A DNA stretch of 64,000 bases from an uncultured delta proteobacterium (GCA_963755715.1 CAVWLW010000073.1:97152-161151), one strand, 5' to 3'. Counted from the stretch's first letter, positions 3,701-47,946 are shown. The notes: generated by a model not told the origin, from the letters alone. Translations and numbers: made by a program.

Positions 3701-3734
3701 TGTCGCTCCATCGGCACACGCCGAAATAGTGACG
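3701..3734. promoter_or_regulatory. Tandem 16+2+16 enhancer-like site (candidate UAS)
   Basis: TGTCGCTCCATCGGCA-CA-CGCCGAAATAGTGACG, ~97 bp upstream of the 3590-3604 promoter. Confidence 0.6.
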
Positions 3735-3875
3735 TCCGGAAAAAGCGAGGATGTTTCATCGTGGCGGAGAACTCGCGCTAGTGATTGGACACGTGGGCTT
3801 GTCAGGTACGCCGACTTGGCGCGTCACTACTCTTCGATACCGGGGGCAACGGCTGGAAACGACCGGCCTCAAGCA

Positions 3876-3909
3876 AAAGCCTGATTCGACACCTGTCGAG
3901 TATAAGGCG
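3876..3909. promoter_or_regulatory. Tandem enhancer-like site (candidate UAS)
   Basis: AAAGCCTGATTCGACA-CC-TGTCGAGTATAAGGCG, ~100 bp upstream of the 4009 promoter. Confidence 0.55.
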
Positions 3910-4008
3910 CCATTTTTTCGTCACTAGTAACCGCGCACGCTCTTGCGAGATCACCATAACTTCCCACACCCTGCTATCCATAAGCGTTTTCTCGACATTG
4001 ATAGCGGG

Positions 4009-4023
4009 TGGCATATCGATTGC
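4009..4023 (+). promoter_or_regulatory. sigma54 -24/-12 promoter
   Basis: TGGCAT-ATCGA-TTGC, 40 bp upstream of the ATG at 4064. Confidence 0.8.
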
Positions 4024-4063
4024 GCTTAGGATCCTTCAACAATAACGAAAGGAGGTGAATCAA

Positions 4064-4366
4064 ATGAAAAACGCAAAATCACTTTTAGCCGCTCTGATTC
4101 TTCTCGGTAACATCATAGCGAGTGGTGCAGCTCTAGCCGCCGACGGTACTATTTCTAAGACCGAAGAGGTGCCGGGCAGCTACTGTCATGAGAAGTTTCC
4201 CGCGATAGAAGGAAAGAGTTTGGCTGACGACGACCCGGCGCTCAAAAGCAAGAAGTCAGGAGATGTCATCGACTACTACGGACCGTGCACTGAGAGTCCG
4301 GTCGGGCAAGATCAGGCGCAAGAGCAAAAATTGGAACGAGAACATCGCATGGAGAACAACTACTGA
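4064..4366 (+). CDS. Secreted two-cysteine protein, 'VIDYYGPC' family, copy 1
   Basis: AAGGAGGTGA RBS; signal peptide ending AALA-A; SYCHEKFPAI...SGDVIDYYGPCTESPVGQDQ; paralogue at 31018-31332. Confidence 0.85.
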   Translation: MKNAKSLLAALILLGNIIASGAALAADGTISKTEEVPGSYCHEKFPAIEGKSLADDDPALKSKKSGDVIDYYGPCTESPVGQDQAQEQKLEREHRMENNY

Positions 4367-4381
4367 AACGACTATTGCCGT

Positions 4382-4421
4382 AATGGTTGGAGGGGGGAGT
4401 AACGACCCCCTTCAGACCATT
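4382..4421 (+). terminator. Stem-loop just after the 4064-4366 gene (possible terminator or stabiliser)
   Basis: AATGGTTGGAGGGGG...CCCCCTTCAGACCATT imperfect inverted repeat; no clear U-tract. Confidence 0.35.
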
Positions 4422-4815
4422 GCCTCCAGCCGACAATTATCTTTCCCCGAAAAGATTGAAGAACGACGAAACCACTGCGGCGATCCAAATCGCACGAATT
4501 ATTTGCGACGGGGTGTCTTGGCATCGAAGATCAATGTCCCGGATATCACGTCAGAGAATCATGATCTGTCAGATTTGTCTCGTAGCAGATTTCAATCTTC
4601 GTACTCACGCCAATGAATGGGGCCCCCCCGAGGATGCTCCAGATAGTAGGTCTCACTGTTCTGTAGCACCGAGCATCCAGAAATCGCGACGAGAAGTAGG
4701 AAAATTAACAGCGCAGTGTACTTCATGATAGGTTGTCGTGGCGGTTTTTGAGCGCACCTGTCGTTCCGGTTGCACGGCGTTCGCTCCTTTCTGCTTCACC
4801 TTGACGGTTTTCTAG

Positions 4816-5040: not shown

Positions 5041-5086
5041 TTGCGAATTCCTCCTTTTCGACGCCTCCAGATAATGACTTCAAAGG

Positions 5087-5101
5087 GCAATCCGTATGCC
5101 A
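5087..5101 (-). promoter_or_regulatory. sigma54 -24/-12 promoter
   Basis: TGGCAT-ACGGA-TTGC. Confidence 0.75.
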
Positions 5102-5162
5102 TCCAACGGCAAGATATTTCTGAGCGCCCGACGCGATTAATTATCGACCGGACGACGGCCCG

Positions 5163-5196
5163 AGTCGTCATATCGACGGACGTCAAAATGACGACT
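5163..5196. promoter_or_regulatory. Tandem enhancer-like site between divergent sigma54 promoters
   Basis: AGTCGTCATATCGACG-GA-CGTCAAAATGACGACT. Confidence 0.6.
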
Positions 5197-5298
5197 GAGT
5201 AACGTCAGTTTTCTTTTTGCGAAGTCATTATGAGGATCGCTGGCCGAGTCAATTCGTGAGCTTGCATGAGGATTGACCAGAGCCGGGCGGCGGCGCAT

Positions 5299-5313
5299 TG
5301 GAACAGGATTTGC
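5299..5313 (+). promoter_or_regulatory. sigma54 -24/-12 promoter of the mdtABC-nodT operon
   Basis: TGGAAC-AGGAT-TTGC; GG-N10-GC spacing kept. Confidence 0.65.
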
Positions 5314-5341
5314 CCTTACAAAGACGCTGAGTGAAAAGTTG

Positions 5342-6556
5342 ATGCAAGAAACTGAAAAGAACGACTTTCCAAAGCGGACGCGTTCCCTCACGTTGCTCAG
5401 ACACTGGAAGATTGGTTTGCTGGCGGTCTGTCTAGCGGCAGTGATTGCCTACGTTTTCTGGAGCAATTCCGGCGGAGCCCAATCGCGCGCCGCATCCCAA
5501 GGGCCGGTTTCCGGCGCGCAAAGCGTCCCGGTTGCCACAGTAGCAGCAAAAACCGGTTCCATCCCCGTCTACCTCACCGGCCTCGGCTCTGTTACCCCGC
5601 TCAACACTGTGACAGTCAAGACTCAGGTCAACGGGCAGCTCATGAGCGTCCGGTATCAGGAAGGCCAAATCGTTCGTGCCGGCGACTTGCTGGCTGAAAT
5701 CGACCCGCGCCCACTCCAGGCCCAGCTGACCGAGTTCGAGGGACAGCTGGCGCGTGACCAGGCTCTGCTGGACAACGCGCGCCTCGATCTCCAGCGTTTC
5801 ACAGTGCTCGTCCAGCAGAATGCAATTCCAAGGCAACAATACGATACGCAAGTATCCCTTGTGCACCAGCTCGAAGGCACCGTCAAAAACGATCAGGGAC
5901 TGATCGAGGGTGTTAAAGTGCAGCTTATCTACACCCGCATCACCGCGCCGGTCAGCGGGAGGGTCGGGCTGCGCCTGGTGGATCAAGGGAACTTCGTGCA
6001 AACGACTGACACCACCGGCCTGGTTGTGATCACGCAACTCCAGCCGATCACGGTGATCTTTACTGTCGCCGAGGACAACATTCCGGCCGTGCTCGACAAG
6101 CTCAAGCATGGGGTTCGGCTGCCGGTCGAGGCGTATGACCGCGCGCTGCAACGCCGCCTTGCCACCGGATACTTATTGACGGTGGATAATCAAATCGACG
6201 CGACCACCGGCACCGTCAGGCTGAAAGCGCTCTTTCCCAACGACGACAACGCTCTTTTCCCCAACCAGTTCGTAAACGCGAGACTCCTGGTGGAAACGCA
6301 ACACGAGGCCACGTTGATTCCGACGCCGGCCATTCAGCGCAACGCCCAGGGCGCCTTTGTCTACTTGGTGAAGCCCGACCAAACCGTGGCGCTGCATACG
6401 ATTTCGGTGGGCACAACCGATGGCGAAATGACGGCGGTAGAGGGATTAAAGGCCGGCGATGTCATTGCGGCCGACAATTTCGACAGGCTGCGCGACGGAG
6501 TCAAGATAGCCGCGCGAGATCGGTCGGCGAATGCGCACGGCGGGACCGGGGCGTGA
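5342..6556 (+). CDS. mdtA: RND periplasmic adaptor (MdtA/MuxA family)
   Basis: N-terminal TM; [21 protein letters not shown]; [21 protein letters not shown]; [11 protein letters not shown]. Confidence 0.9.
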
Positions 6557-9500
6557 GTCCTTCTCGTCCGTTCATTCTTCGGCCGGTCGCGACGTCGTTG
6601 TTAATGGCAGCCATTCTACTCGTCGGCATCGCCGGCTATCTGCAATTGCCTGTTTCGGCGCTGCCGGAGGTCGACTACCCCACGATCCAGGTGCTGACTT
6701 TTTTCCCCGGAGCGAGTCCGGATGTCATGGCCTCCGGTGTTACCGCGCCGCTCGAGAGGCAGTTCGGTCAGGTACCGGGCCTAAACCAGATGACCTCGAC
6801 GAGCTCGGGCGGAAGCTCGGTCATCACGTTACAGTTCTCGCTTAACCTCGATATCGATGTGGCGGCGCAAGAGGTACAGGCGGCGATCAATGCAGCGCAG
6901 ACCTTTCTGCCCAGCGATCTTCCCAGTCCGCCCATCTACAGCAAAACCAACCCGGCGGATACGCCGGTTCTGACCTTGGCGTTGACATCGAATTCCATGC
7001 CGCTGTCGAAGGTACAGGACCTGGCAGATACACGCCTTGCTCAGAAGATCTCACAGTTGCCCGGTGTCGGACTGGTGACCATCAGTGGTGGCCAGAAGCC
7101 CGCTGTTCGGGTTCAAGCCAATCCCACGGCGCTCTCATCCTACGGCGTCAACTTGGAGGATGTGCGCACGGCGCTGCAGCAGACAAGCATCAATCGCCCC
7201 AAGGGCAACTTTGACGGGCCGCACCAGTCGTACCAAGTCGGCGCCAATGATCAGTTGTTGACGAGCAAGGAGTACCGGTCGGTTGTCGTCGCCTTTCGCA
7301 ACGGGGCGCCGGTCATGCTGTCGGATGTGGCAACGGTGATGGATGGCGTCGAGAATGTAAACCAGGCCGCGTGGAGGAACAACGTCCCGGCGGTCATCGT
7401 CAATATCCAGCGCCAGCCCGGCGCCAATATCATTCAGGTTGTCGATCGCATCAAAACGCTTTTGCCACAACTGAACAGTACGCTGCCCTCGTCCATTCAG
7501 GTCTCGGTTCTGACGGATCGCACCTTGACCATTCGCGCGTCGGTCGAGGACGTCCAGTTCGAGCTCATGTTGACCGTGGCGCTCGTGGTGCTGGTGATTT
7601 TTCTCTTCTTACGGAATGTCGCGGCGACGATCATCCCGAGTGTTGTGGTACCGCTGTCTCTCGTGGGCACGTTTGCCGTGATGTATCTGCTCGGCTACAG
7701 CCTCAACAACCTGACCCTCATGGCGTTGACGATCTCGACCGGTTTTGTTGTCGATGACGCGATCGTCATGATTGAGAACATCGTTCGTTACATCGAAGAG
7801 GGCGAGAAGCCGCTGGCGGCGGCGCTGAAGGGAGCGGAGCAAATCGGGTTTACCATTGTATCGCTGACGGTTTCGCTGATTGCCGTATTGATACCGTTGC
7901 TGTTCATGGGGGACATCGTCGGGCGCCTGTTCCGGGAATTTGCGATTACCCTCAGCGTCACCATTCTTGTCTCCGCAGTGGTCTCACTGACCCTCACTCC
8001 CATGATGTGCTCTAAGTTGTTGCGGCACAAATCCTCGAGCCAGCAGGGACGCCTTTACCGGGCATCGGAGCGCGCATTCGACAGTATCATCGAGTTTTAT
8101 GGCAAGACTCTCCGATGGGTGCTGCGCCACCAGACCGCGACTCTGTTTACGGCCGCTGCCACGCTCGCGCTGACCGCGTGGCTTTACATCATCGTCCCGA
8201 AAGGGTTTTTCCCGGTGCAGGATACCGGTGTGATCCAGGGCATTTCCGAAGCGCCCCAGACCACTTCCTTTCCTGCGATGGCCCAGAGACAGCAAGCCCT
8301 CGCTCAAGTCATTCTCAAGGATCCCGCGGTCGAGAGTCTTTCCTCGTTCATCGGTGCGGATGGCATCAACACCACCCTTAATAGCGGGCGCATTCTCATC
8401 AATCTCAAGCCGCTGGCCGAGCGCAGAATAAGCGCGACTGAGGTGATGCGCCGGTTGCAGCCGGCGTTGGCGAACGTCGACGGACATCAGGTTGTACATG
8501 CAGCCGGTGCAGGATTTGACCATTGAGGATCGGATCAGCCGAACGCAGTATCAGTATACGCTGGAAGATCCCGACGCGAATGAGTTGAGCCTATGGACCG
8601 CGCGGCTGGTCGACAAGCTCAAGGCGCTGCCTCAGCTCCGCGATGTCGCCACCGATCAGCAGACGGAGGGTTTGCAAGCGGCGCTTGTCATCGACCGCGT
8701 GACCGCTTCCCGGCTGGGGATCACGCCACAGATGATCGACGACGCCCTTTACGACGCCTTCGGTCAACGCCAGGTCTCAACCTTGTTCACACAGTTGAAT
8801 CAATATCACGTGGTGCTGGAAGCCCTGCCGGAGCTCCAGCAGAATCCGGCCAAATTGGCAGAGATCTATGTCCGTTCCTCAGCCACAGCTCCGACATCAC
8901 CACCGGCTACCGGTTCGGACGCGTCGGTCGCGATTGGACCTTCGACTTCAGCGGCGGCAACGGTAGGCTCATCCGCGCCTAGCACGACAACGAGTATTCC
9001 TACCACCTCCAACATCAATGGAGCGGCCGTGCCTCTCAGCACGTTTACTCATTTTGAGTCGGGCACCGCGCCCCTTGCCATCAACCATCAGGGGCAATTC
9101 CCTGTCGTCACCATTTCATTCAATCTCGCTCCCGGCGCCTCTTTGGGAGAGGCCACGAATGCAATTGAGCAGACGCGCAAGGAGCTTGGCATGCCGCTAA
9201 GCATCCAGGCGGCATTTCAAGGCACGGCAGAAGCGTTTCAAGCCTCGCTGGCCAATGAGCCAGTGCTCATTTTGGCAGCGCTGGTGACCGTCTACATCGT
9301 GCTCGGGGTTCTTTATGAGAGCTACATCCACCCGATCACGATTCTGTCCACCCTGCCCTCGGCCGGGGTGGGCGCGATTCTAGCACTGCTGATCTGCCGC
9401 TCGGAACTGAGCGTCGTTGCGCTCATCGGCATTATCCTGCTGATCGGCATCGTGAAAAAGAACGCGATCATGATGATCGATTTTGCGCTCGACGCCCAGC

Positions 9501-9799
9501 GCCATGGGGGCAAAAGCCCGGTGGACGCGATTTATCAGGCGTGTCTGCTGCGCTTTCGTCCCATCATGATGACCACCCTGGCCGCTCTCTTGGGTAGTCT
9601 GCCGCTGGCTCTCGGTTCCGGGATCGGTTCGGAATTGCGCCGGCCCCTCGGCATCACCATCGTGGGCGGACTGCTCCTGAGCCAACTCCTTACCCTATAC
9701 ACGACGCCGGTCATTTACATCTTCTTCGACCGGCTTGCCATGAAAACCTCAAAGTTCCGCGCCGGCCAAGAAGGCGCGGAGCCCGTTCCAGTGGAGTAG
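6553..9799 (+). CDS. mdtB: RND transporter MdtB/MuxB; frameshift near 8490
   Basis: [15 protein letters not shown]; [11 protein letters not shown]; [14 protein letters not shown]; [15 protein letters not shown]; ORFs 6553-8526 and 8492-9799 are consecutive parts of one protein. Confidence 0.9.
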
Positions 9800-9801
9800 C
9801 C

Positions 9802-12800
9802 ATGAGCCTTTCCGCCCCATTCATTCACCGGCCCGTGGCGACCGTTTTACTGACCGCGGCAATTGCACTGGCGGGGGCCGTCGCCTTCACGGTCCTGCCG
9901 GTATCGCCGCTGCCCCAGATTGACTTCCCCACCATTACGGTGGCAGCGGCTTTTCCGGGAGCAAGTCCCGAGACCATGGCTTCCTCGGTCGCGGCACCGC
10001 TGGAGCGGCAGTTCGGGCGGATCGCCGGCGTGACGGAAATGACGTCAACGAGCTCTCTCGGCGCGACTGCGATCACACTGCAGTTCGACTTGAACCGGAA
10101 TATCGACGCGGCGGCGAGAGACATTGAAGCCGCCATCAATGCCGCTCGTGGTTATCTGCCGACTGATCTGCCGAACAATCCGACGTATCGAAAGGTCAAT
10201 CCGGCAGATGCGCCAATTCTGATTGTGGCGCTGACGTCGGACGTCTACGATCCCGGCCGCCTCTATGATGTGGCCTCGACGATCTTGCAGCAGAAGCTGT
10301 CGCAGATAGACGGAGTCGGGCAAGTCACTGTCGGTGGCAGTTCGTTGCCTGCTGTGAGGGTAGAGGTGAATCCCACCGCGTTGAACAAGTACGGGCTCGG
10401 CCTGGAGGATATTCGCAACATGTTGAGCGTACAGAATGCCAATCGGCCGAAGGGACGGATAGCGGATGATACGACCACGTCGGATCTGGCGGCGAACGAC
10501 CAGCTCCTCAAGGCCGACGCCTATAGGCCGCTGATCGTCAGCTATCAGAATGGCGCTGCCCTCAAGTTGTCGGATGTCGCCAACGTACAGGATTCGGTGG
10601 AAGACTTACGAGCGGCCGGAATAACCAATGGAAAGCCGTCCGTGCTGGTGGTTATTTCTCGCGAGCCGGGGGCGAATATCATCGCTACCGTGGACCGCGT
10701 GCGGGAGGCCCTTCCTCAGCTCAAGGCTTCCATTCCTGCAGCGATCGATCTCACGGTTGTCCTCGATCAGACGACCACGATCCGGGCATCCGTGCATGAC
10801 GTGGAGCAGACGCTGCTTATCTCGATTGGGCTCGTCATTATCGTCGTGTTCATCTTTCTCAGAAATGTCCGCGCAACGTTTATTCCAAGCGTGGTGGTCC
10901 CGGTCTCGTTAATCGGCACCTTCGGGGTGATGTATTTGTGTGGTTACAGTCTCGACAACCTCTCGTTGATGGCGCTCACGATTTCAACCGGCTTCGTCGT
11001 CGATGACGCGATTGTCGTCATCGAAAACGTGACCCGGCATCTCGAGCAGGGAATGCGACCGATGGAAGCCGCGTTGAAAGGAGCCCAAGAAATCGGCTTC
11101 ACGGTACTGTCCATCAGTATCTCGCTGGTTGCCGTATTCATTCCGATCTTGCTGATGGGTGGCATCGTCGGGCGCTTGTTCCGCGAATTTGCCGTCACCC
11201 TCTCGACTGCCATTCTCGTTTCGCTCGTCGTTTCATTGACCACCACTCCCATGATGTGCGCCAGGCTTCTCAAGCACCAGCGCGAGGAAGATCACGGCAG
11301 ACTCTATCGGGCGAGCGAGGAAGTTTTCCTTTGGGTACTGCGCCTGTACGAACACAGCCTTGCATGGGTCCTGCGCCACGCGGCCTTGACGCTGGGTGTT
11401 CTCCTGCTCACGATCGGCGTGAATGTCTATCTCCTCGTCATTGTGCCTAAAGGATTTTTTCCGCAGCAGGATACCGGGCGCATCATTGGAGGCATTCAGG
11501 GTGTCCAAGATACGTCCTTTCAGGCGATGCGGCAAAGGATTACGCGCTTCGTAGACATTGTTAGAGCTGATCCGGCCGTAGCCAACGTGATGGCCTTTAC
11601 AGGCAGCGGGGCAGGCACGACGACGAATACCGGCAGAGTATTTATGGCGTTGAAGCCGCTCGAGGAGCGCAACGTCAGCGCAGATCAACTGATCAATCGT
11701 TTGCGGCCAAAACTGGCGACGGTGCCGGGAGCGGCGCTTTATCTGCAAGGGGTGCAAGACTTGCGCATCGGAGCCAGGCTGGGGAACGCGCAATATCAAT
11801 ACACGATTCAGAGCGATAATCTTGAGGATTTGACCCGATGGGGGCCCACTCTCCTCCAACAAATGAGGAAGCTCCCCGGCCTGGCGGACGTCAGCAGCGA
11901 TCAACAGAACAACGGCCTTCAGGCATCACTCGTATACGACCGTTTGACGGCATCGAGATTAGGAATCACGCCGCAGATGATTGATGACACGCTCTCCGAT
12001 GCCTTCGGGCAACGGCAGGTATCGACGATGTTCACGCAATTGAACCAGTACCACGTTGTCATGGAAGTGGAGCCAGAGTTCTGGCAAAGCCCGGAAGGAC
12101 TGAAACAGATCTACGTTCGCGCGGCTAACGGCGGCGGTGGTTCCGCTAAGCGCATTCACCCATTACGAGCCAACCACGGCGCCCCTCGCTGTGAACCATC
12201 AGGGACAGTTTCCGTCGGTGACGCTTGTCGTTCAATCTTGCGCCCGGTGTCGCCCTCAGTGATGCCGTAAGCCGCATCCATCAGACTGGAACAGAGTATG
12301 GGAATGCCGGCGACAATTCATGGAAGCTTTTCCGGGACACTGCAAGCGTTCCAGGCGTCTTTGGCGAACTCAACCCCTTCTGATTACTGCCGCGCTGATA
12401 GCAGTCTACATCGTGCTCGGGTATTCTCTATGAAAGCTACATTCACCCGATCACGATTCTATCGACTCTGCCGTCGGCGGGCATGGGCGCGGTCCTGGCG
12501 CTGTTGATCTGCCGCACGGATCTCAGTGTGATCGCTCTGATCGGCATCATCCTCTTAATTGGTATCGTGAAGAAGAACGCGATCATGATGATCGATTTCG
12601 CGCTCGAGGCGGAGCGCCAGGAAGGCAAGAGCCCGCAGGAGGCGATCTACCAGGCATGCCTGTTGCGCTTTCGGCCGATCATGATGACCACGATGGCGGC
12701 GCTCTTCGGGGCGCTGCCCCTGGCTTTGGGGACGGAGTCGGGTCGGAGCTGCGCCGCCCGCTCGGCATCGCCATCGTCGGCGGCCTGATCGTGAGCCAGA

Positions 12801-12922
12801 TGCTCACCTTGTACACCACGCCGGTGGTGTATCTCTATCTTGACCGCTGCCGGCTGTGGTTCGAGCGCCGCCGACAGAACTTGCGCGACCGATGGCGCGC
12901 AGAAGCAGCGCCGGAATTGTGA
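9802..12922 (+). CDS. mdtC: RND transporter MdtC/MuxC; several frameshifts between ~12130 and ~12740
   Basis: [12 protein letters not shown]; [11 protein letters not shown]; fragments 12298-12507, 12483-12788 and 12656-12922 carry the successive C-terminal motifs ([29 protein letters not shown]). Confidence 0.88.
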
Positions 12923-12925
12923 TCA

Positions 12926-14395
12926 ATGGGTTGCATGCAGAAAATATTGCGCGCCGCGATGAAACATCGCCGTTTCGCCCCAGCGATCGTAGCGGCAATG
13001 CTGATGCCCTTGAGCGCATGCATGGTAGTGGGGCCGGACTACGTCCGGCCTACGGTCATCACGCCCGATGCTTACAAAGAGATCGACGGCTGGAGAGTCG
13101 CGCAGCCAAAGGACGACCTGATCCGCGGCGCTTGGTGGGAAATCTTCGGTGATCCCCAGCTGAACGCGTTGGTTGCTCAGGTCAGCGTCTCGAACCAGAA
13201 CCTCGCCGTGGCGGAGGCACAGTACCGCGAGGCTCAGGCGCTGGTGCGTGAGGCCCGCGCTAGTTACTTTCCGACGGCGACGATCGGCATCGGCGCCAAC
13301 CGATCGAGCTCATCGACTACCACCGGGGGAGGTCCAGCGTCGCCGAGGACTGCCATTTCCAACTATTCATTGCCTCTCGACGTATCGTGGGAGATCGACG
13401 TCTGGGGTCGAATTCGCCGCACGGTGGAGTCCAACCAGGCGAGCGCTCAGGCGAGCGCTGGAGACGTGGAGGCCGCGCGCCTGAGCGCTCAGGGGGCTTT
13501 GGCACAGAATTACTTTCTATTGCGCGAGCTCGATGCGCAGAAACAGCTCCTGACAGAGACAGTCGCTGCCTTTCAGAAGTCCCTAGATCTCACCGAGGGA
13601 CTGTATAGCCAAGGAGTGGACTCCGAGGCGGACGTGCTACAGGCGGAGACCCAGCTCAAGACTACGCAGGCCCAGCTCATCAATGTGGGCGTCCAGCGCG
13701 CGCAGCTCGAGCACGCGATCGCGGTGCTGATTGGGAAACCGGCCTCCGATTTTTCCATTCCGGCCACGCCCCTTGCAGGTACACCGCCGGAGATTCCCGT
13801 CGGCGTGCCCTCTGAGTTGCTCGAGCGCCGGCCGGACATCGCTGCCTCCGAGCGGAGCGTTGCGGCTGCGAATGCACAAATCGGCGTTGCCGAAGCTGCG
13901 TTTTACCCAACGGTCACGCTCAGCGCCTCCCTTGGCTTGGAGAGCTCGAGCCTGGGGAAATTGGCCACGGCGGCGAGTCGCTTCTGGTCGGTAGGGGCGT
14001 CCATTTCGGAGACCGTATTCGACGGTGGCCTGCGGCGGGCGCAAACCGACTTCGCGCGGGCGGCTTACGACGCGACCGTCGCAACCTATCGGCAGACCGC
14101 GCTGACCGCCTTTCAGGGGGTAGAGGACAATCTCGCTGCGCTGCGTATCCTCGAGGAAGAAGCTGGGGTGCAGAACGAAGCGGTAAAGGCGGCGGAAAAG
14201 TCCGTCGTCTTGACGATGGACCAATACAAGGCGGGCACCGTCAGCTATCTCAACGTGGTTACAGCGCAGACAATCGCCCTGACGAACGAGACGACTGCAG
14301 TCCAGATCCTCGGCCAGCGCATGACCGCTGCCGTGCTCCTCGTCCAGGCCCTGGGCGGCGGTTGGAACATCTCCGACCTACCATCGAACCCGTGA
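12926..14395 (+). CDS. NodT/OprM-family outer-membrane efflux lipoprotein
   Basis: LSACMVGPDY-like lipobox; WWEIFGDPQLNALV; PSELLERRPDIAASER; ALGGGW. Confidence 0.92.
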   Translation: MGCMQKILRAAMKHRRFAPAIVAAMLMPLSACMVVGPDYVRPTVITPDAYKEIDGWRVAQPKDDLIRGAWWEIFGDPQLNALVAQVSVSNQNLAVAEAQYREAQALVREARASYFPTATIGIGANRSSSSTTTGGGPASPRTAISNYSLPLDVSWEIDVWGRIRRTVESNQASAQASAGDVEAARLSAQGALAQNYFLLRELDAQKQLLTETVAAFQKSLDLTEGLYSQGVDSEADVLQAETQLKTTQAQLINVGVQRAQLEHAIAVLIGKPASDFSIPATPLAGTPPEIPVGVPSELLERRPDIAASERSVAAANAQIGVAEAAFYPTVTLSASLGLESSSLGKLATAASRFWSVGASISETVFDGGLRRAQTDFARAAYDATVATYRQTALTAFQGVEDNLAALRILEEEAGVQNEAVKAAEKSVVLTMDQYKAGTVSYLNVVTAQTIALTNETTAVQILGQRMTAAVLLVQALGGGWNISDLPSNP

Positions 14396-16512: not shown

Positions 16513-16552
16513 ATCGCTGGTGATGATTTAAGTTAGCAGCGTTTTAAACGAA

Positions 16553-16575: not shown

Positions 16576-16608
16576 GTGGTTAAGAGGCCTTGAGCTCCGC
16601 CGCCGCTC

Positions 16609-34408: not shown

Positions 34409-37400
34409 TTATTGACGTGTCGATTGAGCGGCGCGCCGTCTGCCGTGGAAAATACTAAACACCGCCGGCACAAAAATCATCGTGGCCACCGTGGCGCACA
34501 GCAGCCCACCGATGACGGCCCGCCCGAGGGGCGCGTTCTGCTCACCGCCGTCGCCCAAGCCAAGGGCCATGGGAACCATGCCGATGATCATTGCGAGCGC
34601 CGTCATGAGCACGGGGCGAAAACGCGTAAACCCGGATTCGATAGCGGCCTCGAGCGCATTTCCATGCTCCGCAAGCCGCTCTTTGGCAAACGACACGACG
34701 AGGATGCTATTGGCGGTGGCGACGCCCATGCACATGATCGAGCCCATCAACGCCGGGACGCTAAGCGTGGTGTGAGTGATAAACAGGAAAACGATGATGC
34801 CGGCCAACGCGGCGGGCAACGCCGTGATGATAATGAAAGGATCCAGCCAGGACTGGAAATTCACCACGATCAATAGATAGACCAGGACGATCGCGAAACC
34901 GAGACCCGCCAGCAAGCCGATATAGGATGTGCGCATCGTGGAGAGCTGTCCGCGAATCGTGATGAAGCTGCCGCGCGGCAATAGCTTTTGGTTGGCATCG
35001 ACGATGCGGGTGATTTCACTGCCGACGGCGCCGAGGTCCCGGTCCTGCACGGAGGCATAAATGTCCACGACGCGGCGGATGTCATAGTGATTCAGCACCG
35101 CCATCTCACTCGATCGCGTGATCGAGGCGACGTCGGCCAAAATCTCCGGACTCTTCATCGTCGCCGAAGTAATCGGCATGTTCTGAAGATCTTGCAGGGA
35201 TTGAATCCGGTATTGGGGGGTCTGGGTCGCCAAGTTATAGTTGACGCCGTTTTGCCAATTCAGGAAAAAGGTCGGAGTCGTCTGAAAACTTCCGCTCAGC
35301 GACACCAACAAGCTGCTGGCGACGTCCCGCTGGGTGAAGCCGCCGCCGGCTGCTTTCGTGCGGTCCACGTCGATATGGAATTTCGGGTAATCGAAGTCTT
35401 GCTGAATGCGCGGGTCGACGATACCCGGTACTTGGCGTATCTCGTTCAGTATCTTGTCGGCGATCTTTCGATTGCTTTGGACGTCGGCGCCCTCGATCTG
35501 AATATCGATCGGGCGCCGGCAAGCCAAAGTTCAAAATTTGAGTGACGATGTCGGCGGGTAGGAAATAAAAGGTATTGCCTGGGAATTCAGCCCCGAGAGT
35601 TTTGCGCAGCTCTCGGACATATTCCGCCGTCGGGACGATGATTTTCCTTGAGGGAGACTAGGATGTCTGCGTCCGCGGCGCTGATCAGGCCAGAGGTGTT
35701 GTGCATGTAATTAATAGTGCTGTAGGGCAACCCGATGTTGTCGAGAATATTGTCCAGTTCCTGGGCCGGAATGACCCGGCGGATCGAGTTTTCAACGAGA
35801 TCGGCAAGGCGTGCAGTCTCTTCAATGCGCGTACCGGTCTTGGCACGCATGTGAAGGCTAAACTGGCCGCTGTCGGTGTCAGGAAAAAAGTTTTCACCCA
35901 GCCAGGGCACGAGGGCCCAGGCGGAAAGACAGAGCAGAAGAAACACAGGGACAAACATGAACCGCCGATGAACCAGCGTCGTGAGTAGGCGCTGGTAGCC
36001 GAGGCGAAGACGCTCAAACCCGCGCTCGAACGAGTCCTGAAACCGGATGAATGGATTGCGCGAAGTAGCCGCATGGTGATCTTTCGGTTTCAGGAGATAC
36101 AGCGCCATCGTAGGCACGAGGGTTCGAGACAAGAAATACGACGCGAGCATGGCGAAGACCACCGCCTCGGCTAGCGGCACGAAGAGGTAACGCGCGACGC
36201 CGCTCAAAAAAAACATCGGCAGGAACACGATGCAAATGCTGAGCGTGGACACCAGGGCGGGAACGGCGATTTGCGACGCGCCGTCGAGGATCGCCTGCTT
36301 GATTTCCTTACCCTGATCCAGATTCCGGTTGGTGTTCTCGATCTCCACGGTGGCGTCATCCACCAGCATGCCCACCGCGAGCGCGAGCCCGCCAAGCGTC
36401 ATAATGTTGATGGTTTCTCCTAAGGCACTGAGAACGATGATCGAGACTAGAATGGAGAGCGGGATGGAAACCGCAATGATCAACGTGCTGCGCCAGCTTC
36501 CCAGGAAAATCAGGATCATCAAACCGGTGAGGCAGGCGGCGATAACGGCTTCGCGGATTACGCCGCTCACGGCGGAGCGCACGAAGATCGATTGATCCGC
36601 AAGCGCCTGAACTTTTAGCTGGGGCGGCAGCGTGGCGGCGACACGCGGAAGAATCGTCCGAATGCCGTTGACGACGTCCAGTGTGGACGCGCTCCCCGCC
36701 TTGAGCACGGTGACGAGCACGCCGCGCAGGCCATCGTGCCGGACAATGTTGGTCTGCGGCGCAAAGCCGTTGCGCACGTGGGCCACGTCCCGAAGATAGA
36801 TCGTCGAGCTGCCCACCTGCTTGATTGGAAGGTCGTTCAGTTGCTCGACGGTTCTGGGTGCGCCGTTGATATCGACGTCATATTCAAATTGACCGATTTT
36901 CGCCGTGCCGGAAGGCAATACCAGGTTTTGCAGATTTACCGCGTTCACCACGTCGGTCGCCGACAAACCCTTGGATTGAAGCAACGCCGGGTTCAAATCG
37001 ATCATCACTTGGGTTTGTTTGCCGCCGTAGGGATAAGGCACCGCCGCGCCGGGAACCGTGACGAGTTGGGTTCGCAAAAAATTCAAACCGAGGTCGTTGA
37101 GCTGCTGCTCGGAAAGGCCTTCTCCTGAAAGAGCAAGCTGGATGATCGGCACGGTTGAAGCGCTGAAGTTGAGGATCAACGGGGGCTGCGCGCCGGCGGG
37201 CAACTGGCGCAGAGCGACCTGCGATACCGCCGTGATCTGCGCGTTGGCGATAGCGAGACTGGCATTCGGCTGAAGAAAAACTTTGATGATCGATTGACCA
37301 TTGATGGTCGTCGATTCGATGTGCTCGATGTTGTCGACGACCGTAGTGAGAATGCGTTCGAAGCCGGTCGTGAAGCGGCCTTCCATCTCTTCCGGATTTA

Positions 37401-37560
37401 GTCCTGTGAACTGCCAGGCGACAGCGACCACGGGAATATTGATATTCGGAAAGATGTCCGTCGGCGTGCGCTGGATCACCACGGGGCTCGCCAACAAGAT
37501 CAATAGCGAGAGGACGATAAAGGTATACGGACGATTAAGTGCGAGTCTAACTATCCACAT
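34409..37560 (-). CDS. RND permease (AcrB/AcrD/AcrF family), frameshifted at ~35520-35630
   Basis: MWIVRLALNRPYTF; TPTDIFPNINIPVV; VGMLVDDATVEIEN; GVATANSILVV; RFRPVLMTALAMIIGM. Confidence 0.9.
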
Positions 37561-37669
37561 ATTGCCATCACTTTACTGTTTGTTAATTGGAGGGAGATGC
37601 CAAAGCGAGCGGAAGCGGAGCTTCACTCTAGAATTAGATCTCCCCTGTTTCTTGGTAACAACTCTATGG

Positions 37670-37684
37670 GCAATCGATGTGCCA
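37670..37684 (-). promoter_or_regulatory. sigma54 -24/-12 promoter of the second RND operon
   Basis: TGGCAC-ATCGA-TTGC. Confidence 0.82.
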
Positions 37685-37769: not shown

Positions 37770-37803
37770 TGCCGCTGTGTCGACAGGTGCCGAAATACGG
37801 GCG
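37770..37803. promoter_or_regulatory. Tandem enhancer-like site (candidate UAS)
   Basis: TGCCGCTGTGTCGACA-GG-TGCCGAAATACGGGCG. Confidence 0.62.
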
Positions 37804-39607: not shown

Positions 39608-40165
39608 CTACTTTCCCTTTGCCTCGGCTTTTATAATTACGCCACAGGCGATCCGATCTCCAGAATTACCCGCGGGATCAGTGACATTATCGTCCGCAGT
39701 TGCGTGGACGACGATGGCGCTTCCATCTGCGTCAAATACAGACGTCTCTCCAGCGCCCAGCGTCATGCTCTCCATGAGCGCCTCATATCGTCCCATCCCG
39801 TCTTTGTTGACAAACATATCCGGTAGATCACCGGCGTGAGGACCATCGGGATTTTTTAAACCATGCTTTTTGTTCTGCGGATTGAAATGACCTCCGGCGC
39901 TCGTAAAGGCGGGCGCGTCACATTTGCCGACCGTGTGGACATGCACCGCGTGCAACCCTTGAGGCAGCCCTTTGACGTTTACAGTTATGACCACTCCATC
40001 CTTCGTCTCACGAAGGGAAGCGGTGCCAACACTTTTTCCCTCGGCGTTCTTGATATCAGCGCGCGCTTGGTTCTGCGCGCCGGCGTTCGCCGTGTGGATC
40101 AACAGAAATAATAAGATCAACAAGACCGTGGCTAACGCAACGATGTCTCGCGTTGTATTGAACAT
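39608..40165 (-). CDS. sodC: Periplasmic Cu/Zn superoxide dismutase
   Basis: Signal peptide; HAVHVH..GKC; SAGGHFNP..KHG; PHAGDLP; GNSGDRIACGVI. Confidence 0.92.
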   Translation of the reverse strand: MFNTTRDIVALATVLLILLFLLIHTANAGAQNQARADIKNAEGKSVGTASLRETKDGVVITVNVKGLPQGLHAVHVHTVGKCDAPAFTSAGGHFNPQNKKHGLKNPDGPHAGDLPDMFVNKDGMGRYEALMESMTLGAGETSVFDADGSAIVVHATADDNVTDPAGNSGDRIACGVIIKAEAKGK

Positions 40166-40335
40166 GACGCTCTTCCTCCGGTTTTCAGAACGTGTACTGC
40201 AGTGCCGCGTAGAAGAAGTTGCTATTCTTGTCGCGGCCGTGTTGCCGCGCGAGTCTGTTCGATCTAACCCGTCGATTCTTTCGGTCAATTGCTCAGCGAT
40301 CCGACGGCCGGCTGGTTGTCCGCAATCAGCGTAAG

Positions 40336-40953
40336 CTACAGTCCCAAGTCCAGAGTGCGAACTTTCTGCAGGCGTTGGCGGACGTCCTCCCAGTTGACGA
40401 TCTTCCAGAAGGCCTTCACCCATTCCCCCTTCACGTTCTGGTATTGCAGATAGTAGGCATGCTCCCACATGTCGAGCACGAGAAGCGGCACGGTGCCGTT
40501 GCCGATGTTGCCTTGGTGGTCGTACACCTGCTCGGTCACGAGCCGCTTGGCGAGCGGCTCCCAGGCGAGCGTGCCCCAGCCCGAGCCTTGGACGTTGAGT
40601 GCCGCCTCGTTGAGCTGGCCCTTGAGGTTGGCCACTGAGCCGAACGATTCTTTGATGGCCGCAGCCAGTTCCCCGTCGGGCTCGCCCCCACCGTGCGGGC
40701 TCATGTTGCGCCAGAAGAGCGAGTGCAATACGTGCCCGGAAAGATGAAAGGCGAGATTCTTCTGTAACTGGTTGATGGCCGCGAAATCGCACTTCTCTCG
40801 AGCCTCGGCGAGCTTCTCAAGAGTCGTATTCGCGCCCGCAACGTAGGCGGCATGGTGCTTGTCATGATGCAGCTCGAGCAGCCTCGCCGAGTAGTGCGGT
40901 TCGAGCGCCGCGTAGTCATAGGGCAAGTCGGGAAGCGTGTAACGGTTATCCAT
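40336..40953 (-). CDS. sod: Fe/Mn superoxide dismutase
   Basis: [11 protein letters not shown]; [10 protein letters not shown]; GHVLHSLFW; QGSGWG; LDMWEHAYY. Confidence 0.95.
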
Positions 40954-41171
40954 TGTTACCCTCCAAATTTTTTACCTCGTGATAATCGATGAGACTTTGT
41001 GCACTGAATACGCTGGAGTCAGCCTCGGAACGCCGAATATATAAAGCAAGGCTGATCGGAAGCGTGATGGGTTTGGCAACACGACAAGCGCATTGAAGAA
41101 TTGCCCACGTTTGTAGAAAAAGGGAGACGCCACCGAATTCCTCTGCGGTGAATTAGCTGCGTGATGAGGCA

Positions 41172-41186
41172 GCAAGCATTGAGCCA
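41172..41186 (-). promoter_or_regulatory. sigma54 promoter upstream of the two SOD genes
   Basis: TGGCTC-AATGC-TTGC(T). Confidence 0.65.
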
Positions 41187-41317: not shown

Positions 41318-41352
41318 TGTCGATATGTCGGAACAGTGTCGATATTTCGACA
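41318..41352. promoter_or_regulatory. Tandem enhancer-like site centred between divergent sigma54 promoters
   Basis: TGTCGATATGTCGGAA-CAG-TGTCGATATTTCGACA (3-bp gap; second half nearly a perfect palindrome). Confidence 0.65.
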
Positions 41353-41487: not shown

Positions 41488-41502
41488 TGGCACACGCCTT
41501 GC
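41488..41502 (+). promoter_or_regulatory. sigma54 promoter with no recognisable downstream gene
   Basis: TGGCAC-ACGCC-TTGC. Confidence 0.7.
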
Positions 41503-41863
41503 CAAAGTCCCGAAGGGAATAAGTCTTCGGGATGGAATTCATTAGGGGCACTCCAAATCGGGGGCACGTGGAACGCAGCAGGCTCTCATGCTGAAACAGA
41601 GCCACCACCCAAACCTCGCGCAGTTTCATGCGCGGCGACTACGGCTCGAAGACGACCCCGCGGGTCTCGGACATCTGATCCCCGAGGAACTGAGCGAGCG
41701 GGCACGGCATCCATTCCATCGCGAAAACACTGAAACGAAACGAACGGCACACCGGCCGCATTCCCGAAGCTGCGATACGCATAGTGAATTCTATGTGCTT
41801 CAACGTGGCGGGTTGGGCAGTTTTACGGTTTCGATTATTGAAATCGACGTCTCCTCGTCTAAA

Positions 41864-42367: not shown

Positions 42368-42560
42368 TTCAGGCTCCTTTTATTGACGTCATTCCTACCG
42401 ATAAAACCGAACTAAACACTCGCCGGGTATTTTCAATCTCTACCTGACCCAATCGTTCATTGAACCTCTTGAATTCACGTCGTAACGCGTGTCAGGAAAC
42501 CCGCGCGTCTCTCGGAAGCCCTGAAAACCCGAATCGCTTCTCTTTCTTTAAGTTAGCTCG

Positions 42561-42575
42561 GCAAGGCTTGTGCCA
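42561..42575 (-). promoter_or_regulatory. sigma54 promoter of the DUF302 gene
   Basis: TGGCAC-AAGCC-TTGC. Confidence 0.78.
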
Positions 42576-42674: not shown

Positions 42675-42708
42675 TGACGGCCTATCGACAGCAGGCAAAA
42701 TATCGGCA
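42675..42708. promoter_or_regulatory. Tandem enhancer-like site (candidate UAS)
   Basis: TGACGGCCTATCGACA-GC-AGGCAAAATATCGGCA, 100 bp upstream of the promoter. Confidence 0.62.
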
Positions 42709-43009: not shown

Positions 43010-43093
43010 GGAACTCTCACGCGTTAGACATCATGCGATCTCTTCTAGTGTCGAGATTTCGTCTGGAACACACCCACTCATCTCTGGAACAGA

Positions 43094-43108: not shown

Positions 43109-43290
43109 GTTACGGAAAGCGATTGCCTGGCACTCAGCGTTTGCCGCAGACGTTGGGGTGAGGCTTCTTTCCTGACGATCTTCCTCTTAGCCACACCTCT
43201 CTCCTCTTAGCCACACCAGTTTTGAATGTTCGACACCGCGGTATCTTTGGATGAACGCGTATTTTCGCCGTCGATGTGCAGCACAATCCA

Positions 43291-44343: not shown

Positions 44344-44821
44344 CGATGACTTTCAGCAAGGTGCTGCCTCGCTATCGTAGGCGTTGGCTGACTTTCTTCC
44401 TTGGGCGCTTAGTGGCGAAGACACGGCAGCCATGCCTTGAACAGCGATCCACGGCCTATGCCCTCATTTGCCGAGTGGTTTGGCGATGGAGCGGCCGATC
44501 TGGTTCGAAGCATCGGCCTATTGAGACCCTATTCTCCGCAATCTTGACCGGAGTCGAAGGAAGGAAAAGCTGGTACACAAGACATTTTGTGTCACGCATT
44601 TCTCCCGCGACAGGCACACCCCGTTTAGTTCAAGTATTCCAAAAGTCCGCCGCGCAGAAGGGCAAGCTTAGCTGCGTGGAGCGTCGCCGGGCCGTATGTG
44701 GCTCGGAGCTTTTGATCACCCTGCGGCTTTGATAGGATGGTTGAGTTCAGACTTCTACGCATTCATTCGACCAGATACATTGAGAAGTATCTCTAATTCA
44801 TCGGATGGAGGCGCGGGCGTC

Positions 44822-46380
44822 TTGAAGCTAGATTCTCTGGCACAGCGAATTCCCTGCGGTTTGGCAATACGGATTTGCCATGCTGGGTGTCGCAGTGGCG
44901 CTGGGCATCACGAACTCGCTGGAGCGCCACACCACACTCCGAACGCCGCTCTTTTACATAGCAGTCATCATCAGCGCATGGTTCGGTGGAATCGGGCCGG
45001 GGTTGCTTGCCGTAGCGCTCTCCACGCTGGTAGTAGGCTACTACTTTGCGCCAGGGAACCAGATGCCGACGGTAAGCATAGACAACCGGCCATTCATCCT
45101 CCTGTTCTTATTGTCAGCCCTGCTCGCCTGCTGGATAAGTGTTCAACGGCGGAGGGCAGAGGAGGCGCTCAAGGAGGCGCGCGATGAGTTAGAAGCTCGA
45201 GTCGAGGAGCGGACCGCCGACCTGCGGCGGGTTACTGAAGGAGTTGCAGGCCGAGATCGCGGAACGCAAACGCGGCGAAGAGGTTTTGCGAGAAAGGGCA
45301 AACCTCCTCGATCTCACGCACGACACAGTCTTCGTGCGCGACATCAACGACGTCATCACCTTCTGGAATCGTGGCGCCGAAAAACTGTACGGATGGACAA
45401 AGGACGAGGCGGTCGGGCAGGTTTCTCACCACCTCACGCAGACGATCTTCCCGGCACCGTTGGAAGAGATCACAGCAGAGCTCAAGAGCACGGGTCGCTG
45501 GGAGGCGGAATTGATCCACACTCGGCGCGACGGAACACAGGTGGTGGTGGCGAGCCGCTGGGCGCTGCAATTGGACGAACGGGGAAAACCGGTTGGAGTC
45601 CTGGAGACTAATAATGACATCACCGAGCGCAAGCGGGCCGAAGAAGCGCTACACAAGGCGCAGGCGGAGCTGGCGCATGTCACGCGCGTGGCGACTCTGG
45701 GCGAGATGACTGCCTCCATTTCCCACGAGGTAAACCAGCCGCTCTCCGCTGTTATCACCAATGCTAATGCCTCTTTGCGTTGGCTCACCCGCCAATCGCC
45801 TGATCTAGATGAGGCACGGGCCGCCGTGGAGCGCATCATCCGTGATAGCAGCCGTGCAAGCGAAGTGATCGGGCGAATTCGCGACCTCGTCAAAAAATCG
45901 CTTCCGCGGCAGGACTGGCTCAATATCAATGACGCGGTCCTAGAAGTCATTGCACTGGCTCGCAGCGAAATGCACATGAATCGTGTTTCGTTACAAACTC
46001 AACTCGCGGATAATTTGCCGGCCGTACGCGCAGATCGAATTCAGCTTCAACAAGTAATCCTCAATCTGCTTATCAACGGCATCGAAGCGATGAACCGGAG
46101 TAACGAAGGGAGCCGCGAGTTAGGGGTCAGTACTGAGAGAGACGGATCGAGCGGCGTGGTGATTGCCATACGCGATGCGGGGGTGGGGCTGAATCCAGAA
46201 AATCTAGAACATCTCTTCGACCCTTTCTACACGACGAAGCCGGATGGAATGGGGATGGGGCTGGCGATCAGCCGCTCGATCATCGAGGCACACGGGGGCC
46301 TTCTTTGGGCTACGCCCAATACGCCTTGCGGTGCAGTCTTTCAATTCACGCTGCCCCATGACAGCGAGAGAGAATCATGA
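44822..46380 (+). CDS. Sensor kinase DUF4118-like TM-PAS-HisKA-HATPase (NodV-like core), frameshifted near 44852 and 45240
   Basis: AWFGGIGPGLLAVAL; LLDLTHDTVFVRD PAS; SISHEVNQPL; GMGMGLAISRSIIEAHGG. Confidence 0.88.
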
Positions 46381-46483
46381 CTCTCCTACCCTGTGTAAGC
46401 CAATTCGAAAACTGGTGCCCATCACGAATGACGAGCGCACCTTTGAAGTAACCGCACAGTTTTTCTAAACGTCGCCGTATTTG

Positions 46484-46912
46484 CTAAAGCAGTTTTGCGG
46501 TCAGGCGAATGTTCGTTCCGGCCAGCGCCTTTGACACAGGACAATTCAGTTTGGCGTCCAGCGCATATTTTTGAAATGTCGCGTCGTCCATGCCAGGAAT
46601 GTCGGCCTCGGTCTCCAACTCGATCGATGTGATGGAAAATCCTTCGCCGATCTTTTCCAGTTTCACTCGCGCTTCGGTATGGATGCGCGTTGGCGTGATT
46701 CTCCCGCGCGAGAGCTGCGCGGTCAGCGCCATCGTGAAGCACCCGGCGTGAGCCGCGCCAATCAACTCTTCCGGGTTGGTGGCCGATTGGCCTTCCTCAA
46801 ATCGGGACTTAAACGAATACGGGCCGTCAAACGCGCCACTGGCCAATTTCAACCGTCCGCTGCCTTCGGCCAAATTGCCTTGCCATTCTGCTTCCGCTTT
46901 CCGTGTTGGCAT
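46484..46912 (-). CDS. osmC: OsmC peroxiredoxin
   Basis: AEAEWQGNL; SFKSRFE; TNPEELIGAAHAGCFTMAL; NCPVSKAL. Confidence 0.93.
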   Translation of the reverse strand: MPTRKAEAEWQGNLAEGSGRLKLASGAFDGPYSFKSRFEEGQSATNPEELIGAAHAGCFTMALTAQLSRGRITPTRIHTEARVKLEKIGEGFSITSIELETEADIPGMDDATFQKYALDAKLNCPVSKALAGTNIRLTAKLL

Positions 46913-46962
46913 AAAGACTCCTGTCGATTTGCTGCTGCGATGCGACCGCAGTGGTTTCAGCC

Positions 46963-47647
46963 CTACCGGGCTGAGTATTTCGGGGCTGAGTATTTCGATA
47001 GAACCTGCAGCAACTTCTGTTCACCCGCCGGCGGTTTTACCTTGCCCGCGAGAATGTCCTTGGCCGCGACCGGCTTACCGTAGTATTCCGCGTTGGCCTC
47101 ATCCCGGGTCGCGATTACCGTGCCCTCCAAAGAAATACCGGCAAAAAGTCCCTGGCTGATACTATAACGTATACATGGCCGCCTGCAGCGCCACATTTCC
47201 CTCGGCGGTACGCCCGACCGGACCGGCCGCTGCGCTCAGGTTGCCCCCGAGGGTAACATTGCCGCCCTTCGAGAATGCGTCAACAGCTTCTTGAGTGTTG
47301 AGGACAATCACAAATTCAGTGATCTCCACGCCAGCTTGAAAGCCGACTCCTATCCCTCCCGTACCGATTGCCGAAGGACCGCTCCAACCCTTTCCGGTTC
47401 GCGCGACGACAATGCCGCTCCCGCCTCTGCCACTGCCGATGAACCCGGCTTTCGTAACGGTCAAGATCGCTAAACCTTTAGCGTCTCGCAGAACTCTATC
47501 GGGAATTGCTCGGTCAGGGATTTCCTGGAAGCGCTGAATAATCGTCACGGCCTGATTGACGTCGTCCTGCGTGCTCGCATGCGCGGCGGTGGCATTCAGA
47601 AACACGACGAGAAGAACTGCAACAATTGAAAAAGTAATTGGTCTCAT
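46963..47647 (-). CDS. SYLF/Ysc84-like lipid-binding secreted protein, frameshift near 47163
   Basis: Signal peptide; KAGFIGSGRGGSG; WSGPSAI; GFQAGVE; AAAGPVGR; SQGLFAGISLEG. Confidence 0.88.
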
Positions 47648-47757
47648 CTTGGCACTCTCCTTTTTTTTCGGCCGAGCGTTCATGCATACCGCGGTGGATG
47701 ATCGCTGCGCGCCGCGGTTTCATTTGAATGATCGCTCGGCTGCTAGACCATGGAACA

Positions 47758-47772
47758 GCAAGGATTAAGCCA
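47758..47772 (-). promoter_or_regulatory. sigma54 promoter of the SYLF-osmC unit
   Basis: TGGCTT-AATCC-TTGC(T). Confidence 0.68.
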
Positions 47773-47912
47773 GCCAGCCAACGGCTTTGACTTTTGTGTC
47801 ATCGATCTATGGGAGCACCGCAATTTATTATCTATTGTGAGTAACAGAGATGAAGAAGCGGGTCACAATCGACAAGCTTTTTGTTCTGTCGCTGCTTCTG
47901 ACGAAAATGTCG

Positions 47913-47946
47913 TGTCGATATACCGGAGTGAGTCGAAATCTCGACA
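47913..47946. promoter_or_regulatory. Tandem enhancer-like site (candidate UAS)
   Basis: TGTCGATATACCGGAG-TG-AGTCGAAATCTCGACA. Confidence 0.62.

Follow-up and report, generated by a model that had tools for sequence, protein, structure and literature searches.

Bacterial enhancer-binding proteins (bEBPs) bind dyads as paired dimers, which seed an AAA+ ring and loop to the sigma-54 polymerase. Here we analyzed a stretch of 64,000 nucleotides from an uncultured delta proteobacterium (GCA_963755715.1, CAVWLW010000073.1:97152-161151; this whole stretch is hereafter the window), in which a 34-base tandem element made of two 16-bp dyads, with the consensus TGYCGAWATWTCGRCA, recurs upstream of sigma-54 promoters. 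The repeated element is a real, non-chance motif. The sequence comparisons indicate that it is very probably the upstream activator sequence of an FhlA-like clade of sigma-54 activators, the most likely reader in the window being the REC-type activator encoded at 14507-15913. The activators linked to the element carry a recognition helix that reads x-R-x-[T/S]-L-X-S, in which X occupies the position of Fis R89.

FleQ of Pseudomonas has the nearest solved helix-turn-helix (HTH) domain (RRTTLVE, Val at X), and its box (GTCaNTAAAtTGAC; PMC6120874, PMC10723142) contains a 14-bp GTC-N8-GAC core with an A/T-rich centre, which corresponds to positions 2-15 of our dyad. One HTH dimer is modelled per FleQ box, and paired boxes occur. 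In the window, the G.C-N8-G.C frame is found in 12 of the 16 dyads, and base 3 of the half-site is T in 17 of 32. Unlike the window activator, FleQ lies outside the FhlA clade and uses c-di-GMP/FleN; its paired boxes belong to sigma-70 biofilm promoters, and the two papers do not describe them as lying 1-4 bp apart, whereas the window dyads have G at base 5 and are GC-richer. The genes behind the window elements encode efflux, superoxide dismutase (SOD), OsmC and small proteins rather than flagellar or biofilm functions (no genome search aimed at FleQ itself was made).

Escherichia coli FhlA and HyfR carry a helix identical to that of the window activator (GLKRTTLLS/GMKRTTLLS), which has FhlA as its best family match (NF011958). 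They also share a TGTC half-site and two sites per promoter (PMC7658346), and the window activator has a paralog on contig C67 with the GAF-GAF-AAA-HTH layout of FhlA. On the other side, the published FhlA matrix is 14 bp long (TGWC-N6-GWCA; PMC7658346) instead of 16 bp, and the window sites do not follow this 14-bp site in its E. coli-like arrangement; no gap-2 tandem was detected in the E. coli hyc-hyp, hycA-hycB and hyf regions, taken here to contain the FhlA sites. The window activator scores 472 bits, below the family cut-off of 830, has a REC input rather than GAF-GAF, and is accompanied by stress and efflux genes instead of formate hydrogenlyase genes.

The NifA upstream activator sequence resembles the ideal dyad in its 16-bp length and outer bases (PMC4999443), while the information of the present dyad lies in G-x-C-G and the A/T centre. 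The preliminary description of this DNA held that the motif does not match NifA. This was borne out in that one of 16 window dyads fits TGT-N10-ACA strictly and no nifH scored above the family cut-off in the 93.6% complete genome, but any dyad of the ideal form TGTCG-N6-CGACA also fits that pattern (PMC4999443). Of the 31 bEBPs in the genome, only the window activator was scanned against NifA, for which it reaches 387 bits compared with 529. TGT..ACA frames with 9, 11 or 12 bp have been described for Desulfovibrio bEBPs (PMC4641369). Fis shares the HTH fold, the A/T-rich centre and an Arg at the helix start, R85, which contacts a conserved G, while R89 can face the next base (PMC4784862); its 15-bp core is read mainly by shape, in contrast to the core here, which is 14 bp long and in which the residue equivalent to R89 appears to read a base.

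The motif had been put forward as possibly new. Neither the close tandem nor a rule linking helix and base was found described in the literature searched, which included few subscription papers and no supplements; since the dyad shares the published FleQ-box geometry and the FhlA half-site, the element is a variant rather than a new class. It would work like any bEBP enhancer and, by membership, is no FhlA, NifA or FleQ site.

The tandem element is a non-chance motif

The eight tandem sites of the preliminary description were all confirmed, as was its single dyad at 43049-43064 (Table 1). Only 5 of 16 window dyads fit the proposed pattern TGNCG-N6-CGNCA strictly; likewise, the proposed 2-bp spacer is the most frequent gap without being fixed, as the 48 loci with sites described below have gaps of 2 (26 loci), 3 (12), 4 (6) and 1 (4). 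An unseeded palindromic Gibbs search of width 34 was run on 10 upstream regions, with those of promoters 5101 and 41488 excluded (each shares an element). The motif was recovered and all seven gap-2 sites were placed exactly, with a score of 226 against 145-154 in 12 shuffles and 166-171 at odd widths.

A matrix was then built from 16 sites of other genomes, which were chosen with the window matrix and are thus not fully independent. It gave six gap-2 window matches of at least 12 bits, compared with 0.115 per shuffle (200 shuffles); five previously described sites are among the six best gap-2 matches, and 41318 is the best gap-3 match. The site at 5163-5196, with T at base 3 in all four half-sites, scores only 3.6 bits because this matrix derives almost wholly from C-type sites. 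The weak element at 3876 has a perfect inner half-pair and poor outer halves. The single dyad at 43049 is situated downstream of promoter 43108 and 226 bp upstream of promoter 43291.

A class-wide search for the inner half-pair plus promoter was rejected as not discriminating: it gave seven matches in G000, yet 35 of 151 genomes had one or more, and many matches fall in GC-rich coding DNA. At 1740-1780, two TGTCG...CGACA units likewise stand 2 bp apart, but their centres are longer (8 and 11 bp). They precede a formate dehydrogenase alpha fragment (567-1070) by about 670 bp and have no sigma-54 promoter in the vicinity.

The element is coupled to sigma-54 promoters

Scoring with the RpoN matrix of PMC7658346 revealed 12 -24/-12 promoters in the window (11.2-15.7 bits). 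Ten of them are served by the eight elements, because those at 5163 and 41318 each sit between divergent promoters. Counted as the bases between the element and the T of the -24 TGG, all eight elements lie 85-140 bp from a promoter, the position expected of a bEBP enhancer (about 80-150 bp). For the five sites earlier placed at 97-103 bp from a -24 element the placement stands, with each count off by one base (96, 99, 102, 96 and 99). Dyad symmetry and pairing, as expected of a bEBP upstream activator sequence, and co-occurrence with an intact bEBP (GAFTGA, HTH) were also observed.

Across the genome, the window matrix found 20 gap-2 tandems of at least 18 bits, 14 of them outside the window, versus 4-7 for gaps of 0, 1, 3, 4, 5 and 6. 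Among the seven best gap-2 sites outside the window (at least 22 bits), six have an RpoN site of at least 10 bits 80-110 bp away (observed 84-102 bp), compared with 0.68% of 50,000 random positions taken genome-wide rather than intergenically; at 18 bits or more the figure is 6 of 14. Two targets of these promoter-coupled sites are paralogs of window genes. Conversely, 18 of 917 RpoN-like sites of at least 11 bits have an upstream tandem of at least 21 bits (gap 2, 13; gap 3, 3; gap 4, 1; gap 0, 1). In the syntenic island of genome G018, sites 37770 and 47913 recur at the identical distances of 85 and 140 bp, and the 37770 element is conserved although its flanks diverge.

No tandem element was found upstream of the divergent promoters 43108 and 43291. 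The interval between them contains a direct repeat of 13 bp with a 20-bp period (43184-43216), possibly the site of another activator. Helical phasing of the element-promoter distances was not significant (Rayleigh p 0.06-0.84), and no clear IHF site was seen in the spacers, the best match to the consensus having 2-3 mismatches in 9 of 9. Elsewhere, a gap-4 element (G000:C41:90289) precedes, at a distance of 98 bp, a strong sigma-54 promoter with an alpha/beta hydrolase gene, which is probably another member of the regulon. Strong C-type tandem elements at G000:C58:6086, L208:17805 and L209:895 have no sigma-54 promoter nearby. The L208 and L209 elements (G187) are near activators with PRSTLDS/PRQTLES helices, which hints at sigma-54-independent use.

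Activators associated with the element

The genome holds 31 full bEBP matches. The window activator is sister to the C67 protein (100/98), and the AAA+ domains of the two group with those of FhlA and HyfR with a FastTree support of 0.90; the helix G[LM]KRTTL-X-S is common to all four. Three of the six promoter-coupled sites outside the window lie directly downstream of the C67 activator gene. REC-type activators were found in 6 of 90 family genomes and C67-like proteins in 16 of 151 class genomes. The element adjoins C67 orthologs in five genomes where the REC type was not found (G003, G004, G011, G014 and G015), as well as C67 relatives in Nitrospiraceae, Acidobacteria and Verrucomicrobia, and it therefore belongs to a clade and not to a single gene. 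Gap-2 sites of at least 20 bits number 14 in 540 kb beside KRTTL-type genes versus one in 910 kb beside other bEBPs. The element often begins at the activator stop codon (start at -16 to +6 bp in 21 of 46 downstream cases), with the sigma-54 promoter about 96 bp further on. T-rich elements are located directly behind REC-type orthologs in G189 and G190, which represent two other genera.

The idea that the motif is the binding code of the local activator thus survives in part: helix type, T bias and the elements behind orthologs in two genera make the window activator the best candidate reader, but the code is not private to it, being found also beside the GAF-GAF C67 paralog and its orthologs. 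Among 26 records from a plasmid collection, none was a close relative of the REC type from a cultured host, and the best matches were FhlA/HyfR.

Among the C67-type loci, the element C67:85099 has a sigma-54 promoter with a TTGT variant of the -12 element (13.6 bits); this promoter region behind the GAF-type activator (C67:85229) keeps the non-standard -12 across genomes (L007, L009, L012, L014) and drives an SDR gene. A third FhlA-clade activator, on C52 (three GAF domains, helix NPSTLRS), has its own tandem element (G000:C52:23746-23780, L246), whose half-sites carry T at base 2 and G at base 3. The distance to a divergent sigma-54 promoter is 63-65 bp, and L042 shows a corresponding arrangement. 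This type is conserved in a Candidatus Binatia metagenome-assembled genome (activator 67% identical). Judging by this identity and by Atlas taxa, the organism is probably related to Candidatus Binatia.

A helix residue corresponds to a motif base

Loci bearing the helix (143) were rescored over -600/+1200 bp around the activator gene, with bases 1-3 unweighted and a bonus for agreement among the four half-sites that favoured no base; sites were found in 48. They occur near 40 of 79 genes whose helix is of the R..L.S type, near 1 of 50 whose R..L helix lacks the serine and near 7 of 14 without the arginine; among random stretches the figure is 17 of 1500. Where the helix ends in Asn, His, Tyr or Thr, 1 of 50 loci had a site, no de novo motif search having been made for such helices.

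Base 3 follows residue X. When X is Gln (sites in 26 of 39 loci), base 3 is C in 96, A in 7 and T in 1 half-site, with a C majority in 26 of 26 loci; when X is Asn (10 of 22), it is A in 34 and G in 6, with an A majority in 9 of 10; when X is Leu (2 of 7), it is T in 7 and C in 1, with a T majority in both. The R..L.S loci with Glu gave C4 (site in 1 of 4) and the one with Asp C3 T1 (1 of 1), and those with His, Phe or Ala had no sites. At base 2, G is present in 158 of 164 half-sites when helix position 2 is Arg, versus 1 of 28 when it is Pro.

At base 3, the window has T17 C11 A3 G1 and ten sites of other Leu-type islands have T24 C11 A3 G2, while C67 sites have C9 T3; the FhlA matrix, also from a Leu helix, shows T 7, A 4, C 1, G 1 (PMC7658346). 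Because these T-rich half-sites match the Leu type and T-rich elements stand behind REC orthologs, the window sites are assigned mainly to the window activator.

Taken together, we lean, by a narrow preference, to a reading in which a large, little-known clade of FhlA-like activators in soil bacteria (Candidatus Binatia-like, Acidobacteria, Nitrospiraceae, Verrucomicrobia) shares one tandem scaffold that would be split into channels by a one-residue/one-base code. The code would link Gln to C, Asn to A, Leu to T and, in one pair of loci, Arg to G, while Arg or Pro would set base 2. Three paralogs here would use three spellings, the kinase-controlled window activator running a sigma-54 oxidative-stress/efflux response and the C67 and C52 GAF sensors running their own sets.

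Several points weigh against the proposed code and reader. In a tree of the AAA+ domain only, the Leu (REC) loci, the site-bearing Asn loci and the Arg pair form one clade each and most Gln loci are kin, so that the code rests on about three or four independent changes. It is noisy without Arg at helix position 2 (X = Arg gives G in 2 of 4 loci, X = Glu gives C in 1 of 2), and two other Pro/Arg loci do not give G at base 3, unlike the C52 activator and L042. No site was seen at 12 of the 22 loci with Asn or at 13 of the 39 with Gln, and the matrix core was trained on Gln and Leu sites. The tandem geometry is not set by the helix, because E. coli FhlA has the identical helix without a gap-2 tandem. 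The window activator gene itself has no element within 1.2 kb, and only 2 of 7 Leu-Ser loci have one. The genome also encodes two further, unassigned FhlA-clade bEBPs (C22, truncated, and C27).

Genes and features of the window

The window is a stress and efflux island around a PAS kinase/response regulator cluster that ends in the REC-AAA+-HTH activator. It contains two RND operons, Fe/Mn- and Cu/Zn-SODs, OsmC, Ysc84, DUF302, DoxX, catalase pieces and pentose-phosphate genes, and the element probably switches on the stress-defence and efflux genes; in the window, DoxX and the metabolic block have no tandem element. Behind promoter 41171-41186(-), the Fe/Mn-SOD comes first and the Cu/Zn-SOD next. 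The catalase promoter is missing because the window stops at the contig end.

Table 1. Positions of regulatory features and predicted target genes in the window (element scores from the outside-genome matrix, promoter scores from the RpoN matrix)
Feature	Position	Strand	Score (bits)	Remarks
Tandem element, gap 2	3701-3734		15.1	promoter 3589-3604(-), 96 bp
Weak tandem element, gap 2	3876-3909		-14	promoter 4009-4024(+), 99 bp
Tandem element, gap 2	5163-5196		3.6	divergent promoters 5086-5101(-), 61 bp, and 5299-5314(+), 102 bp
Tandem element, gap 2	31483-31516		24.7	promoter 31371-31386(-), 96 bp
Tandem element, gap 2	37770-37803		20.6	promoter 37669-37684(-), 85 bp; second RND operon
Tandem element, gap 3	41318-41352		19.5	promoters 41171-41186(-), 131 bp, and 41488-41503(+), 135 bp
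Tandem element, gap 2	42675-42708		21.9	promoter 42560-42575(-), 99 bp; DUF302 gene
Tandem element, gap 2	47913-47946		12.0	promoter 47757-47772(-), 140 bp; Ysc84-family gene, then osmC
Single dyad without partner	43049-43064		11.1	rank 9 among window 16-mers
Sigma-54 -24/-12 promoter	3589-3604	-	14.5	
Sigma-54 -24/-12 promoter	4009-4024	+	13.1	
Sigma-54 -24/-12 promoter	5086-5101	-	11.9	
Sigma-54 -24/-12 promoter	5299-5314	+	11.2	
Sigma-54 -24/-12 promoter	31371-31386	-	15.7	
Sigma-54 -24/-12 promoter	37669-37684	-	12.8	
Sigma-54 -24/-12 promoter	41171-41186	-	14.1	
Sigma-54 -24/-12 promoter	41488-41503	+	13.6	no clear gene behind
Sigma-54 -24/-12 promoter	42560-42575	-	14.0	
Sigma-54 -24/-12 promoter	47757-47772	-	13.2	
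Candidate cognate activator, REC-AAA+-HTH bEBP	14507-15913	-		FhlA clade, intact GAFTGA, 468 aa
Recognition helix K431-R-T-T-L-L436-S437	14603-14623	-		aligns with Fis N84-K90; L436 at Fis R89 position
Predicted target, RND efflux operon, MdtABC-type	5273-14395	+		adaptor, MdtB/C-like permeases in pieces, outer-membrane channel
Predicted target, second RND efflux operon	31733-37560	-		
Predicted targets, Fe/Mn-SOD and Cu/Zn-SOD	39608-40953	-		Fe/Mn 40336-40953; Cu/Zn, C-terminal part of frame 39608-40792
Predicted targets, Ysc84-family protein and OsmC	46484-47683	-		47162-47683 and 46484-46912; probably co-transcribed
Predicted target, ~100-aa protein	4055-4366	+		no known family; signal-peptide-like start; paralog 31018-31341
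Response regulators (single-domain and FixJ-like) and PAS histidine kinases	16126-29524	-		presumed signal input; synteny in G018

The family of ~100-aa proteins has conserved cysteines and is repeatedly the first gene behind the enhancer (4055-4366, 31018-31341, G000:C51 near 111250, L005 and L125); it matched no Pfam family, and its Atlas clusters are without names. Genes of the RND operons, kinases, pgi and catalase are broken by frameshifts (6553-12788, 34409-37560, 17298-20701, 49428-49904 and 62871-63942), which are possibly indel errors of the assembly. Contigs of four metatranscriptomes from four studies overlap in part with the genes that follow 3604, 4009, 5101 and 5299, and the segments 3668-4039 and 5156-5279 are covered by none; they were not used as evidence because they give neither start nor strand and lack a DNA control.

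Discussion

Following established bEBP biology, we propose that one Fis-type HTH dimer would bind each 16-bp dyad, that two dyads about 18 bp apart would load two dimers and nucleate the AAA+ oligomer, and that this oligomer would loop to the sigma-54 polymerase about 85-140 bp away. The helix Arg, at the Fis R85 position, is predicted to read G2, and the correlation described above suggests that residue X contacts and sets base 3. From the gene order, the REC activator would be switched by phosphorylation from the adjacent kinase cluster, presumably upon stress, its output being the oxidative-stress, efflux and small-protein genes of the island. The Gln-type C67 paralog probably cross-reads the window sites, because 11 of 32 window half-sites carry C.

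The strongest competing explanation, which we regard as possible yet less probable than a direct code, accepts a true enhancer but ascribes the match of residue and base to shared ancestry. The few independent changes on the tree and the exceptions among Pro-type helices speak for it, and motif likeness does not always parallel likeness of the DNA-binding domains (PMC4641369). Set against this, position X is one that faces the matching base in a Fis structure (PMC4784862), and FhlA and FleQ, two outside lineages with a hydrophobic X, likewise have T.

It is unlikely that the window sites are read only by the C67 paralog while the REC activator serves other promoters. Such an arrangement would suit the physical tie of the element to the GAF type at most loci, including the five genomes named above, the C-rich sites 37770 and 3701, and the lack of an element adjoining the window activator gene, but base 3 is T in just 1 of 104 half-sites beside Gln-type genes versus 17 of 32 in the window, and the T-rich elements of G189 and G190 stand behind REC-type orthologs. 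Reading by another bEBP, NifA-like or of the NtrC/AtoC clade, at a TGT-N10-ACA type of site is very improbable: although the ideal dyad fits this pattern, such frames are common among bEBP motifs (PMC4641369) and the genome has many candidates, the single strict fit, the lack of nifH above the cut-off, the near absence of gap-2 sites beside other bEBPs and the base changes that track the FhlA-clade helix all argue otherwise. Least probable of all is that the palindromes act as RNA hairpins, such as terminators or leaders, or represent a small repeat. Many elements do begin straight after a stop codon and some fold at -14 to -25 kcal/mol. However, in the 8 bases behind an element there are never more than 5 T, which holds for both strands of the 8 window sites and for 21 post-stop sites; in addition, energies range down to -4, the distance to sigma-54 promoters is fixed and all four half-sites change jointly with a protein residue. 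The post-stop elements may have a side role as a roadblock behind the activator gene.

Enhancers as a concept, dyads of this geometry and their occurrence in pairs were already known, and the motif alone is ordinary; the interest lies in the testable residue-base code. In genomes with at least 30 bEBPs, the hard step is to match enhancers to activators. If the code is true, it would provide a direct test of how Fis-type HTH domains gain specificity and orthogonal sigma-54 activator-enhancer pairs for synthetic circuits, and the helix-to-base rule could assign regulons of uncultured soil bacteria from sequence. For the organism studied here, the finding points to a stress and efflux response via sigma-54.

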